DNA of 62,786 bases, filler included, from Candidatus Woesearchaeota archaeon (GTDB lineage: Archaea > Nanobdellota > Nanobdellia > Woesearchaeales > GCA-2687795): assembly GCA_030753365.1 (NCBI GenBank). It is 6 parts of 6 records of this genome, joined end to end, with 100 filler letters (N's around TTAATTAATTAA, not from the genome) between each part and the next. Parts side by side here need not be neighbours in the genome. Positions count along the whole stretch, not along the records: positions 48,863 to 58,250 come from JASMCJ010000021.1; positions 58,351 to 62,786 come from JASMCJ010000024.1; 4 more parts are not named here. The stretch is one strand, 5' to 3'. Made by a program: the position numbers. This document shows, in pieces, positions 57,001 to 62,786 of the stretch; position 1 is the stretch's first letter; every line of letters begins with the position of its first letter.

Positions 57001-60000
57001 TCTCCAGCGGCAAGGATTTTAAGTTTTTTAGGCTGTTTTTTTTCTTTCATTGAAAAAATTAGTGGTCTTTTATGCACCATAAATGGTGCAGATTCAGCCA
57101 GCACGAATTTTGAGCAAATTACTCCAAGCTACTCCACCTTAAAAGGAGGAGATATCTTTCAGTAATTTATGGCCTGAGTATGTCTACTTTTTCTTTAGTG
57201 AGATCAACTACTTTTGAAGGCTTGCCTGATTTTTCGCCTTCATAGATTATGAAGTCTACTTGAGATTTTATTTCTGGAGAGAGGTTTTCAAGCGAGGTCA
57301 TGAAATCTCCGCCAACTGAGTTTGCTGAGGTTGAAACTATTGGTATGTTGAGCTTTTCTGATACTTTGGTGAACCAGTGTTTGGGTATTCTCATACCTAA
57401 TGAATTAATGTTAGGTATTGTTTCTTCTGCGACTGCTGATTTGTTTTTTAGTTTGCAGATTAAGGTGTATGGACCAGGAAGTTTTTCCAGCCAATCAGCT
57501 TTTGAGCATTCTGTATTGTTGATTATCCATTCTTTGGATGGTACAATGACTGAGAATGGTCCTTCGCTTCTGTTTTTGATTTTTCTTATCCTTTTTACAG
57601 CTTCAGGGATTAAAGCGTTGCAGCCCAAACCGTAGATGGTATCTGTGGGATGGATAAAGACTGCTCCCAGTTCTATTTCTCTCAGGATTTTTTCTTTGTT
57701 TAGCTGAAATTCTTCTTTGTCTATTATTCTCATAAAAAAGATGTAACCCTTATTGTTTTAAATAGTTTTTGGAAATAGGTATAAAAAGATATAAAAAGAT
57801 GTATTAATAAAAAGGGATTCAACAATTTTATAAATAAATGTAGATTTGTGAAATTATAAACGTTGAGGTGAAGAAATATGATAAAAGATTTAGAAGCAAG
57901 GCAAGGTAATGTTGATATTGTTGTGGAAGTAATGGAAGTTAGCGAAGCGAAAGAGTTTGAAAAGTTTGGGAAACAGGGTAAAGTGGCTAATGCTATGGTG
58001 AAAGATGAGAGCGGAGAAATAAAGCTTACTCTTTGGAATGATGATATTGATAAAATAAAAGTTGGAGATAAGATTCATATAATAAATGGCTATGTAGGAG
58101 AATGGCAGGGCGAGAAACAGTTGTCAACAGGTAAGTTTGGACAGATGGAAGTTGTGAAGGAATAGGGCATCTATCCTAAAACAAAAACTTTATAAACATA
58201 AAGCTTCAGGATTTGTATAAAGAAAGAGGTGATTAGTATGATTGATAAGANNNNNNNNNNNNNNNNNNNNNNNNNNNNNNNNNNNNNNNNNNNNTTAATT
58301 AATTAANNNNNNNNNNNNNNNNNNNNNNNNNNNNNNNNNNNNNNNNNNNNACTGTCTAACCTTTGTTATGAAAGCGAAGACTCTCCAGTAATCTACAATG
58401 AAGCCTTTTATGTAGACCCATCCACTTGGACAGTACCTTCTTCAAGATACTTTGTTAATGAAGAAGAACAAGTCATATCAAAGAAGGACCAACCAATAGA
58501 AGCCCTATTCAACACAATCATGGCAAATGAATATGACAGTTGTTATATAAATGACAATCCCTGCCCCTTTACTTTAATTGAATTCCAGCAGTCTAACGAA
58601 GACCAAATAGAAGAAAATGACATAATCAACTTTCCTTAAACCTTCTTTACTTACAAATCATCAACGAATAAATTTAAATACTTCCAACACCAAGAAATTC
58701 TAAAATGCGTAAAAAAGCACAAGGTCTTCCATTAAATGTAATAGTCATGGCAGTCCTTGCATTAGTAGTGCTCATAGTCTTAGTACTAATCTTCAGAGGC
58801 CAGGTAGGAGTATTCAACAAAGGCACAAGCTGTGATGCAAGAGGCGGCAAATGTATGAACAGTGAATCAGGAGAAGTATGCCCTTCTGAAAGGCCAATAA
58901 AAATCTACACACAGGAATGTCCTGTAGTAGGAGATGGCAAAGGAGCAGGCCAATGCTGTATTCCATTAGGACAATAAATTGCGGAAAGATATCCACCTTT
59001 TAAGGTGAAGTAACTTGGAGAAATTTGCTCAAAATTCGTGTTAGTGGTGCAGAAAAGCCCATGAATTTTTTCAAAATGATAAAATCAAAAAAAGCAATCA
59101 TAATGTCACAGATTGTCTGGGCAGCCCTTGCCCTAATTGTAATAATAATCTCAGTTCTAATAATAACCGGCCAGCTGGGCGCTGTCAACAAAACCTTAAA
59201 CGACTGTGAATCAAAAGGTGGAGAATGCATTCTAGCAGATGAATGCGATTCTGGCCCATCCTTCCTTCCGGGTTGTAAAGACAACACTATCTGCTGCATA
59301 AGCCCATAAAATGAAACACACCAAAAAAGCAGCCTTAACATGGCAAATCATAGTGCCCCTAATCCTTGCAGTTTTAATTATCGCAATAATCCTTGCAATC
59401 TCAAACCCTATCTTTCTTCAGGGCTGGCAGGCCTCAAAATACCATTCAACAGAAAAAAGGCTAAACTTTTGCATAAGCTATGGCGAATCAGGCAAATACC
59501 CTGATACAGATAGAGATGAAAATGATAACATTAAGCCTGACGGCCTCCCAGACTTCTGTGACAACTGCCCTCTTGTCTATGGCAAGCCAGAAGTGGATGA
59601 TAAGGGAAAGCTTAGCTTTCATAAAGACATTGATGGTGATTTTGACCTATTTATAGAAGGCTGCATAGGCAATGATGGTTCAATCCCTCCTCAGCCTTCT
59701 GGAAAAAAAGAAACCTCAGAATTAGATAATAAACCCAAGATATCCCCTGATTACAAATGGAAAGGCAACCTTCCAGAAAAAGAAACAACCTAAAAATCAA
59801 ATGAAACCTTTCTCCAACAAAAAAGCCCAGGAAGGCATAACCCTTACCCAAGCAATAGGCATAGTCTTAGCAGTAATTGCGATACTTGCATTAACCTTTC
59901 TCATAGCCAAGATAAGTGCTCCTTTCTTCAACAAACAAGGCTATACTGCCACAAAAAACAACTTTGATGAGCTAACAGATAAAGTACAGGAAATGTTAGA

Positions 60001-62786
60001 AAAAGATGGTTTAGCTGTTGAAAGGTTTTTCCCTTACTATATAGGAAAGGAATATGCTCTCATGGCTTTTGGCAAAGAAGACACTATAGCAGGGCCTAAA
60101 TCTTTAACTGTTTATGATGAGCAACTAACTTTACTCAAGCCAGACTTCTGTGCTAAAAAAGCATGTTTATGCTTCTATAAAGATATAAGATATGTTGTAG
60201 GGCAGAATGGATTTGAACCACTTACAATCCCAGAAACAAAAGATAACAATGTTTTGCACTGCAAAACCTTTGAAGGAGACATAACATTCTTCACCACTTC
60301 TTCAGAATTCATTGGAGGAGAACTAGCCCAAACCCCTCCTACTTTTCATCCAGGAGACGAATATACCTATATAGTACAACCCACCGGAGTAAAAGGAATC
60401 CAAAACTTTTACATGGAAAAACTGGAAAAAAACAGCAAGATTTACTTCTACATAACCACAGAAGATGATGATACACAAATTAGATATAATTCTTTAATCT
60501 AGTTTCACCAAAACCTTTATATATGTATACATCTGCTATGTATTAAATACAGCACAATTTAATACAAGGTGCTGAGAAATCAAAGATTTCTGGCACCTCA
60601 AATTTTTAAAAAAATTTAAGGTGATACTAATGGGAGAAACAATAACAACAAGGGTAGATAATGAGATGGCAAAGGATATTGCCTTCTTTTCAGATATAAA
60701 CAAGCTGGATAAGTCCACAATAACAAGAAGGCTGTTAGCCAAATCATTGGAAGAAGAAAAGCTAGCTTATGCGCTTCACAGATACAAAAATGGAGAGATA
60801 ACAATAGGAAAAGCTGCTGAGCTTGTAAAAAAAGACCTAAGAGAGATGCTCTTTTTAGCCTCAAAGAGAGGAATTCACTTCCAGTACTCATTAAAAGAAT
60901 TAAGAGAAGACTTTGAGGCAGCAAAAAAGAAAAAATGATAGCCTGCAATTCAACAGTTTTAATATTTCTGTCAAAGTTGGATAAGCTCAGCTTACTAAAA
61001 GAATTATTCAAGCAGGTGCTCATACCCGAAGAAGTAAAAAGAGAAGTAGTTGATGAAGGAAAAAGAAAGAACCATATTGATGCCATTGAGACTGAAAAGG
61101 CAATAAATGAAGGCTGGATAAAAGTAGAAAACACAGAAATCCATCCCCTCCTTATGGACATAGGCATTGATAAGGGAGAAGCAGAAGCAATCTCTTTAGC
61201 TTACAAAAAGAAACTGGGAGTTCTATTAGACCAAACGCATGCAAGAGAAGCAGCTAAGCTATTAGTCGTTGGTCCTAAAGGCACATTATATGTCTTATTA
61301 TTAGCCTTAAAAAAGAGGTTAATAAGCTATGATGACTACATGCTTAGCCTGTTTGACTTAATCCAGTTTGGCTTTAGAATGTCTGAAGGAGTATATCTCG
61401 AAGCAGTAAGGCTTGGAAAAGAACTAGCAAAGAAATAATCTTCTAAAAAATGTTTAAAAAAAACAAAAAAGCAGCCATAAATGAACAAACCTACATGCTG
61501 ATAATAAACATTGTTATTATCGTCATTGTATGGGGCCTTGTCTTCAACTATGTAAGGTCTGTAGGAAACAATACCTTAGTTGAAAAGATATACCTCTCCA
61601 AAGACATTGCATTGCTAACGAACATAATCTCTTCCTCACCAGGCAACATCTTCTATACTTATTCAAACTCCAGCAACAAGCTTGACATCACAAAATATCT
61701 CTACTCTTTCAAAGATAGTTATGTAAAAGTCAAAGAAAATGAAAAAGACAACCAAGTCTATTTCCCGTATGCAAAAGACCTCTCCTTTGAAAACAGCTTT
61801 CCTAACCTTATTGAAAATCCTGAAGAAATTCACTTTGTAAAAACAGGCAATAAGCTATCCATTGATAAATCTTTAACCTCCAACCTAAACCAAATCTCCT
61901 GCCCAGACATCAAAATAGAAGAAGAATTAGCCAATCAAAACATACTACTTGACCCAGGTCATGGAAAGGATCCAAACAGAGACATAGCATCAGATGATTT
62001 TGGCTTAGAATTCAAAGATTATTATCGAAAAAACAAGAAAGAAGCATACATAACCACTCAGATATCTAATGGTGTTAAAACTAATTATATTAATAATAAT
62101 AAAGTAAAGCAAACAAGAAACTATGACACTCCCTTATCCATACAGACAAGAAAAGATTCAGCAAAAGATGCCCACATAATAATCAGCATCCATATAGGAA
62201 ACTACTCAAACAGTTACAACACAATAAAAGCATTCATCCCATACAAAACAACCAAATTTCTTCAAAGCAGAAAGCTTGCCTGCAGCATTCTAAACTCTTT
62301 CCCTCCTGAGCTTGAATTAGATGGCATTGTAATCATCCCTGTTGACACTTCAACTCTACAAAAGGACAATCCAATGCAAATCATAAACTTTGAAGACAAA
62401 ACAGCAGTCTTATTAGAAATAGGCAACATAAACACAGAGCAAGGAAGAAGCATGTTCAACCAACCATCAAAACTATCCGACAGCATATACACTGGACTAA
62501 CAAAATACTATTCAAAATGAACAAAAAAGCAATACTATCATTCAACCAATTAATGGCCTTTATCAGAATCTTGCTCTTAATAGTAGTCATGTTCGCCATA
62601 GTATTCCTTGTAAACTCTGCCATAACCATGGAAATAAACACCTTTAATGCTGAATCAGAGCTATTCATCCAGCAATTACTTTACTCCAACGCCTTAATGC
62701 TCAACGACTATGAAACTGACAGGTTCTATCCTGCAATAATTGACTTAAACAAATTCAACTCCCTTGAAGTGGAAGAAGATCTAAAC

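Follow-up and report, generated by a model that had tools for sequence, protein, structure and literature searches.

A pilin-like protein fused to an Amidase_3 domain in a conserved row of pilin-like genes in Woesearchaeota

Gene organization of the pilin-like row

The window (the whole stretch of DNA analyzed, 62,786 nucleotides) consists of six joined parts of the genome of a tiny marine archaeon (GenBank assembly GCA_030753365.1). Coordinates refer to the joined stretch. A row of pilin-like genes, all on the plus strand, occupies positions 58705 to 62786 on JASMCJ010000024.1 and carries the following features:

58705..58977, +, small Cys-rich pilin-like protein, slot s (90 aa; class III-type start; slot-s profile E value, 8.5e-24)
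59061..59309, +, second small Cys-rich pilin-like protein, slot s (82 aa; class III-type start; slot-s E value, 7.5e-17)
59311..59793, +, pilin-like protein, not a core slot (160 aa; class III-type start; acidic Cys-containing C-terminal part)
59801..60502, +, slot B pilin-like protein (233 aa; slot-B match E value, 2.7e-27)
60621..60938, +, UPF0175 protein (Pfam PF03683; E value, 2.1e-11)
60935..61438, +, DUF3368/PIN-like protein (Pfam PF11848; E value, 1.3e-7; weak PIN match)
61450..62520, +, g365, slot C, pilin-like N-domain plus Amidase_3 (356 aa)
61450..61473, +, g365 class III-type basic leader, residues 1 to 8 (predicted cleavage after Ala8)
61474..61890, +, g365 pilin-like domain, residues 9 to 147 (N-terminal helix long and broken, followed by beta strands)
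61930..62517, +, g365 Amidase_3 domain, residues 161 to 356 (H171 at 61960, E198 at 62041, H248 at 62191, E323 at 62416)
62517..62786, +, g366, slot D pilin-like protein (slot-D match E value, 9.9e-26; overlaps the g365 stop)

The six pilin-type N termini listed in the first-pass annotation were all recovered, with class III-type starts at the ORFs beginning at 58705, 59061, 59311, 59801, 61450, and 62517. The run of pilin genes described there holds for these ORFs but is interrupted by the UPF0175 and DUF3368/PIN pair (60621 to 61438), which is not pilin-like. As slots B and C were directly adjacent in 72 of 76 loci, this pair was read as an insert, and its family matches make it likely to be a toxin-antitoxin-like pair of an antitoxin and a nuclease partner. 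The product of 58705..58977 is a candidate major or minor pilin, while that of 59311..59793 matched slot s weakly (E value, 6e-4) and no Pfam family above the cutoff. Slot B is without cargo in this genome; wall hydrolases are found on slot B of some relatives. The g366 gene is truncated by the contig end after 90 aa.

Four runs were compared over g365. Two had a single contig of 2.2 to 2.3 kb spanning the whole gene with zero differences, and in a third, a 1.6-kb contig over g365 carried one difference. Divergent alleles of the slot-s gene at 59061..59309 were present in two other runs, with differences at 59231 to 59276. An assembly chimera or contaminant contig was ruled out, since g365 is in one piece in other runs and its orthologues lie in the same operon in closed genomes. 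In the RNA run (5% of words present), coverage within the row was limited to 59734 to 59952, and g365 was uncovered.

The Amidase_3 domain of g365

The earlier assignment of Amidase_3 to g365 (E value, 5e-14) was reproduced, with residues 165 to 351 scoring 53.1 bits against a cutoff of 27 and spanning positions 1 to 173 of the 174 in the PF01520 profile. The C-terminal domain has the Amidase_3 alpha/beta fold, and 94 of 140 aligned relatives matched the profile at an E value of 0.001 or better. The zinc ligands that had been claimed are also present: H171, E198, and H248 were read in the DNA and align with the metal positions of solved amidases, giving a triad assigned by alignment to these references. 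The catalytic Glu corresponds to E323, within L-L-E-I-G-N, aligned with Glu199 of CwlD. All four zinc and catalytic residues were kept in 62 of 141 representatives, across deep divergence.

Identity of the g365 domain to CwlD (7rag), a C. difficile amidase (4rn7), Cwp6 (5j72), CwlV (1jwq), LytH (7tj4), and AmiC (4bin) was 18 to 26%. Unlike these known amidases, g365 is archaeal and its Amidase_3 domain stands behind a pilin-like domain rather than a wall-binding domain. It also has conserved cysteines (Cys151 and Cys278) and a His-x-Gly where the known enzymes have His-x-Asn/Asp. The glycine is Gly250 (62197), at a product-contacting position where the three solved members compared carry Asn or Asp. 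Asn/Asp two residues past the second His is common in Amidase_3 and not shown to be defining. Asp117 of Ami1, at the matching position, contacts L-Ala. Among the 62 intact relatives, 46 have Gly at this position. Cys278 is predicted to pair with Cys151 of the linker. In a tree without bacterial rows, a branch with an SH-aLRT value of 98 separated 31 slot-C domains from 16 further Amidase_3 domains of the order. No longer fused forms were found among 4,333 candidates of 624 to 2,000 aa, which is weak evidence. The g365 amidase would, if active, cleave the MurNAc-L-Ala bond of bacterial peptidoglycan.

The pilin-like domain and filament machinery

The class III signal of g365 comprises a basic leader, K-K-A followed by A-I-N-E, and a hydrophobic stretch. 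Scored by our own rule, the motif occurred in 73 of 85 slot-C orthologues versus 22 of 122 other ORFs of the same genome with an early membrane helix, which is above chance. Glu lies at +4 in g365, and +5 is Glu in 10 of the 73 orthologues, counted from predicted cleavage sites. Glu at +5 is typical of bacterial pilins and often missing in archaea. The mature domain was modeled with helices at 2 to 31 and 34 to 54 (pLDDT, 91.5), which points to a long N-terminal helix, and the predicted fold of the N-domain is tentatively pilin-like. Its profile matched none of the sequences of solved structures, and Foldseek with the N-domain returned nothing significant.

The genome encodes an A24 prepilin peptidase (contig C45; E value, 9.7e-17), a type IV filament ATPase cut by a contig end (C7), and a fragment of a platform-like gene (C77), a label inferred from eight to nine membrane helices and position, with no Pfam match. 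The only match of the Class_IIIsignal profile was a weak one elsewhere in the genome (C69; E value, 0.08). The link to a pilus, previously drawn from the signal peptide only, now also draws on the tentatively pilin-like predicted fold, the peptidase, ATPase, and platform-like genes, and operon linkage in other orders.

A conserved operon with exchangeable cargo

The g365 gene is one of several armed slots in a larger conserved row of pilin-like genes. The operon is single-copy and occurs in more than 90% of the order; in other orders it adjoins type IV filament ATPase and platform-like genes, with a single platform-like gene of about 700 aa after the ATPase. The g366 gene is far better kept than the 9 of 20 loci first reported, being found in 82 of 85 loci, adjacent to the g365 slot in 75 of the 82 showing both genes, and in 40 of 40 further loci.

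Peptidoglycan hydrolases of the M23, SLT, NlpC/P60, Amidase_2, M15, and MepA types occur on various slots, at least one being present in 25 of 53 loci; GDSL, NAGPA, and peptidase C39 domains are further cargo. In four genomes slot C carries M23 or SLT instead of the amidase, which lends support to peptidoglycan as the target, and the catalytic residues of the replacement M23 are intact. The source assembly yielded neither slot E nor slot F; the row stops there at the contig end. Searches of the genome, which is 94.5% complete, likewise found no SLT or M23 family, which is no sign of their absence, as slots E and F are also missing from the assembly. The slots do not appear to be recent paralogues, their globular parts having no mutual profile similarity (probability of 5% or less). 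Nor did an intact slot C and an armed F show an either-or pattern: where slot F was read in intact loci, it was armed in four of eight. Genes for RPA, a YdjM protein, and RadA come after the operon, with RPA in 64 of 85 loci and directly past slot F in 43 of 62. The source genome has RadA on a separate contig from the row.

Distribution and erosion of the amidase

Searching genomes with Pfam alone undercounts the family, as the source genome itself was missed in a 301-genome run; family profiles were therefore used for counts. The N-terminal part, previously reported from 38 of 81 genomes, is indeed widespread, but that figure was too low, the N-domain being present in 175 of 189 same-order genomes. 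The hydrolase, in contrast to the earlier claim of conservation in about half of the order, is much rarer. Across slot C in 130 same-order genomes, residue counts gave an intact amidase in 10 (about 8%) and an eroded one in 39, with no extra domain in 50. At least one of the four residues was missing in 39 of the 49 genomes with a recognizable amidase-derived domain. Structural positions (C151, C278, L276, A277, N282, and N326) are still conserved in eroded copies. Raw counts showed a strong joint loss of ligands (64/12/15/51), which did not reach significance when independent pairs were used. The marker tree used here was a quick one. The amidase was probably gained once on slot C inside the order and then eroded, lost, or replaced many times.

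Relationship to known systems

Searches of an open-access library listed no description of the fusion or of an armed operon; the earlier search had likewise listed no such fusion. In the excerpts consulted, modular minor pilins such as PilB and PilC of Streptococcus sanguinis and PilX1 and PilX2 of Saccharibacteria resemble g365 in having a foreign domain grafted onto a pilin and thought to be displayed at the tip (PMC10191384, PMC11623550); their modules are described there as adhesive or lectin-like, whereas the archaeal operon carries wall hydrolases swapped among several slots. To minor pseudopilin I of type II secretion (EpsI, GspI, XcpV), g365, an archaeal protein, shows 3 to 5% identity and no sequence similarity. 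Archaeal bindosome or class III-signal binding proteins likewise give an extra function to a type IV filament machinery encoded at another site (PMC13705601, PLoS Genet 2026), but their cargo is ABC-type substrate binding, whereas that of g365 is a catalytic-type Amidase_3 inside a pilin operon; the words "peptidoglycan," "hydrolase," and "enzyme" are absent from the main text of PMC13705601. Archaeal system 1 (the Epd pilus of Methanococcus maripaludis) also has many minor pilins in a long operon, and its pilins are reported from 1,990 Nanobdellati genomes. Two platform genes are described for system 1, in contrast to the one gene of about 700 aa past the ATPase here, and no Epd family was matched to the g365 operon.

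According to excerpts of three studies, enzymes directed at the walls of bacteria are encoded in archaea, most of all in this phylum, and bacterial hosts or prey have been proposed (PMC12352652, PMC8204110, PMC9723730). These enzymes include archaeal peptidoglycan hydrolases (Strock et al. 2025, PMC12352652) and large murein transglycosylases of Woesearchaeota and Pacearchaeota (Castelle et al. 2021, PMC8204110; Vigneron et al. 2022, PMC9723730). As described there, they are Sec/Tat-secreted modular proteins or fam00969 members (median, 1,947 aa), whereas g365 is a pilin-like fusion; the same excerpts mention neither a pilin link nor an Amidase_3 fusion.

Proposed function and alternative explanations

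With a rough probability of 0.47, slightly short of even, g365 is a minor subunit of the tip type in a type IV filament that, on contact, cuts bacterial peptidoglycan at its sugar-peptide bond. The observed basis is the signal motif, the fusion, the residues, the operon context, and the peptidase, ATPase, and platform-like genes in the genome. The A24 peptidase would take off the 8-residue leader, and slots C-D-E-F may form a priming or tip complex, by analogy with the set of minor pseudopilins in type II secretion, on a shaft built from the small Cys-rich slot-s proteins. The amidase, bound to the linker by Cys151-Cys278, would bind zinc and cleave MurNAc-L-Ala. Together with hydrolases of other slots, it could loosen, where the cells touch, the wall of a bacterium that serves as host or prey.

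An active amidase displayed at the cell surface or on a short pseudopilus, in the manner of the bindosome, might instead digest debris from the walls of dead bacteria to obtain amino acids and sugars, sparing living cells. Class III-signal proteins with functional domains have been proposed to adapt archaeal type IV filaments to the capture of nutrients (PMC13705601), free debris poses no outer-membrane problem, and GDSL, NAGPA, and peptidase C39 are among the cargo. Such scavenging seems unlikely, however, given that polymer-cutting autolysin types dominate the cargo and that the genes sit in a fixed pilin operon, with no ABC binding-protein family among the clusters common to at least three of 25 loci; a vWA domain on one slot-C copy (L151) suggests contact. 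Similarly doubtful is a domain that only binds, as a peptidoglycan-recognizing adhesin or structural pilus-tip cap, with catalysis incidental or lost, g365 included. The frequent loss of catalytic residues (39 of 49 genomes), the structural positions retained in eroded copies, Gly250, and the adhesive domains on known modular pilins (excerpts of PMC10191384) all fit this reading; the retention of all four residues by g365 and the 62 deeply divergent representatives, together with the intact replacement M23, argues against it.

The altered His-x-Gly pocket and the separation of the slot-C domains as a distinct subfamily could indicate a different substrate, for example, a polymer of archaeal walls or a glycopeptide on the surface of an archaeal host. 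This is improbable, as the remaining domains swapped into the operon belong to standard peptidoglycan-cutting families and pseudomurein is, in the excerpts of PMC12352652, chemically distinct. The RPA, YdjM, and RadA genes past the operon would suit a competence-type filament that imports DNA, its hydrolases lysing neighbors or opening walls and so freeing nucleic acids. That role is very improbable: no ComEC-family match was found in five of five genomes, four of them closed, and the RPA-RadA block may be a mere conserved neighbor, RadA lying apart in the source genome.

Implications

On the contact-cutting reading, a broader and still more tentative proposal is that a single ancestral type IV filament is common to Woesearchaeota and related orders, with tip subunits that dock exchangeable wall-cutting enzymes. 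A large DPANN branch would then parasitize or prey on living bacteria by means of a contact weapon or feeding probe, with g365 as an amidase warhead and the warhead set of each lineage tracking the wall chemistry of its host. The erosion pattern would represent the passage of a pilus-borne enzyme to a pseudo-enzyme many times over. Bacterial hosts of Woesearchaeota have so far been proposed from scattered transglycosylase genes without a delivery device, and the pilin operon, whose subunits have repeatedly acquired peptidoglycan hydrolases, names a candidate device. It lets the host question be addressed without culture, as domain specificity would point to the host group. If true, modular pilins would extend from adhesion to enzymatic attack, and a divergent family of wall hydrolases would be added.

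Operon organization and genomic setting

The genome (897 kb in 78 contigs, 94.5% complete) carries a pilin-like cluster that spans most of contig C24 (window positions 58351-62786). Across 85 operon loci drawn from its own order and other orders of the class, the genes form a row of constant order, A - small pilins - B - C - D - E - F, with g365 in slot C. Where both slots were seen, B and C were adjacent in 72/76 loci, C and D in 75/82, D and E in 76/77, and E and F in 72/73; genes for RPA, YdjM, and RadA often follow the row. In the present genome a gene pair, likely a toxin-antitoxin system, lies immediately before g365.

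60621-61438, UPF0175 and DUF3368/PIN pair, inserted between slots B and C
61450-62520 (+), g365, slot C, 356 aa, pilin-like N-domain and Amidase_3 domain

Of 25 loci from other orders, 17 had a platform-like gene and 11 an ATPase gene, nearly always immediately upstream, and 10 had a peptidase gene close by. In its own order the ATPase is encoded elsewhere, away from the operon. The present genome has an A24 peptidase gene, a type IV filament ATPase gene that runs off a contig end, and an incomplete platform-like protein. Orthologues of this ATPase, 52 to 61% identical to the query, occur in 5/5 closed genomes, and in genome G025 the orthologue was the sole type IV filament ATPase found.

Several other features were recorded around the operon. 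The block 3′ of slot F (loci L032-L118) comprises RPA, the YdjM membrane protein, a 100-aa protein without a Pfam family, and RadA, and is found in many genomes of several orders. In its own order the operon is preceded by a second block of four or five class III-signal genes, many of which have Gln at +1 (L032:14718-19632 and 13 more loci); fragments of this block are on C47 and C53 of the present genome. Two isolated class III-signal genes that differ in type (G000:C26:9592-10071 and C69:1493-1702) suggest additional pilin kinds in this genome. Elsewhere in the window, a 311-aa ORF (53358-54293, minus strand), which by eye resembles a LAGLIDADG homing endonuclease, shares its terminal stretch with that of an RtcB-like gene (51981-53387).

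At least half of the sampled words of C24 were present in 19 sequencing runs, labeled as seawater or marine (15), hydrothermal vent (3), or unspecified (1). In other runs the small pilin-like gene and the 160-aa gene were represented by clearly divergent alleles (59231-59276 and 59484-59535), unlike g365, which had at most one difference. This suggests that exposed small subunits change faster.

Pilin-like character of slot C

A leader-plus-helix motif, scored by a purpose-made rule rather than FlaFind, was present in 73/85 slot C orthologues versus 22/122 control proteins. Modeled alone, the g365 N-domain is predicted to form a long broken helix followed by a beta meander (pLDDT, 91.5). A structure search against 48,161 chains returned EpsI, GspI, and two Thermus pilins as its top four rows, and pilins made up 9 of the first 19 rows (highest Z, 4.3); a Foldseek search with the N-domain gave no significant match. 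The structural matches to pilins are suggestive, not decisive, and g365 would be processed and assembled into a filament as a pilin.

Distribution and history of the amidase domain

The slot C N-domain profile matched 225/251 high-quality genomes in a phylum sample, nearly always in single copy: 175/189 of the order (counting the present genome and two unpublished ones) and 50/62 of other orders. Slot C was classed in 130 same-order genomes, comprising set 1 (53 of 54 profile matches, one weak match being left out) and set 2 (77 further genomes among the 150 matches listed, 81 matches lying outside the listing and one unpublished genome being left out). With set 2 taken among the matches listed, slot C was short, without the extra domain, in 50/130 (33 set 2 genomes being called on ORF length alone); it carried an amidase-derived domain in 49, a long unrecognized domain, with one or both cysteines in many, in 26, M23 in 3, and SLT and vWA in 1 each. 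All four zinc and catalytic residues (H171, E198, H248, and E323) were kept in 10 of the 49. The first-pass annotation had an active amidase in half of the order, which is wrong, as 10/130 genomes have an intact copy (set 2 among the matches listed). Slot C was short in 25/25 loci of other orders. In a large library, 577 clusters matched at E 0.001 or better; of the best 150 of the 577 representatives, 141 span both domains and 62 are intact, in a set that was found using g365 and is enriched for intact copies.

Two loci had unusual arrangements. At L050:9180-10420, slot C consists of two pieces, a pilin part (∼115 aa) and an intact amidase on an ORF of its own (291 aa), and at L151:675-1829 the vWA cargo, an adhesin-type module, replaces the hydrolase.

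In a domain tree without bacterial rows, 31 intact slot C domains (30 drawn from the intact set) were separated by a branch (SH-aLRT, 98) from 16 further Amidase_3 domains belonging to the order. On a quick RPA+RadA tree of 64 loci, seven intact copies were unclustered and required 6 changes, with 125/500 shuffles equally low, and on the protein tree intact versus eroded required 35 changes, 10 of them forced by strong branches. The simplest reading, although it is not proven, is that the amidase was gained once and then eroded many times.

Active site, cargo, and target

g365 keeps all four residues, and intact copies, at a mean identity of 29%, also keep flanking motif residues (R234, 90% against 48%; S246, 94% against 44%; G185, 95% against 42%); both points favor activity. 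C151 and C278, a predicted disulfide pair, are ∼90% conserved. However, the His+2 position, where Asp117 of Ami1 is described in PMC7694207 as contacting product, is Gly in g365. Among the other Amidase_3 domains of the order, 14 had a readable motif, and 10 of these show Asn or Asp at that position. The pocket of g365 is thus altered, which counts against activity. Binding without cutting, which the Gly would suit and the retained residues would not, is on balance unlikely.

The cargo of the other slots says more about the target than g365 does by itself. In slot F the cargo is M23, SLT, NlpC/P60, Amidase_2, 3D, VanY/M15, MepA, or Amidase_3, frequently paired; in slot B it is glucosaminidase plus VanY within the order and, in 3/25 loci of other orders, SLT, Amidase_2, or M23. 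Motif searches found HxxxD in 17/17 and HxH in 13/17 M23 domains, the late His motif in 8/8 Amidase_2 domains, and the Cys motif in 6/7 NlpC domains; only 5/11 SLT domains fit a purpose-made Glu-Ser pattern. When a slot was counted as armed if it held an intact amidase or a wall hydrolase scoring above the Pfam cut-off, at least one armed slot occurred in at least 25/53 set 1 loci (some loci being cut) and in 26/40 long-slot loci of set 2 (among the matches listed), so that "half of the order" holds for an armed operon but not for the g365 gene itself. Scavenging of wall debris is an improbable use that we place level with binding. A substrate other than bacterial peptidoglycan, conceivable for g365 with its changed pocket, is decidedly less probable, and DNA uptake is the least probable of all.

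Three related loci have a TPM domain in slot A (L079:7606-8268, L097:9040-9702, and L098:12178-13062), and between slot F and RPA, L039:2126-7336 encodes a secreted-type protein of 1,737 aa whose domains include GH3, metallophosphoesterase, and NAGPA. An 855-aa protein of the present genome (G000:C60:15059-17623; L131) has a strong C-terminal Amidase_2 domain (E value, 4e−33) and a long, basic N terminus without a class III start; by its sequence, it appears to be a second, separate wall amidase.

In mainly open-access literature, with subscription journals largely outside, no description of a pilin-amidase fusion or of hydrolase-bearing pilins in this group was found. The sources compared, in the parts available, were PMC12352652, PMC9723730, PMC8204110, PMC4858521, PMC8496864, PMC10936187, PMC11623550, PMC7694207, PMC10191384, PMC13705601, and bioRxiv 10.64898/2026.05.13.725050. 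In 12 of the 13 supplementary files of PMC12352652, Amidase_3 appears only in a phage table and a domain list; the available main text of the bioRxiv preprint lacks the relevant terms. Tables S4 and S5 of PMC13705601 (Nanobdellati) may list these genes as pilins.

The g365 feature is real and combines known kinds, a modular pilin and an archaeal wall hydrolase. At a probability of a little under one half (∼0.47), a minor, tip-type pilin subunit would display an active amidase, which, together with the cargo of adjacent subunits, would loosen the wall of a bacterium upon contact.
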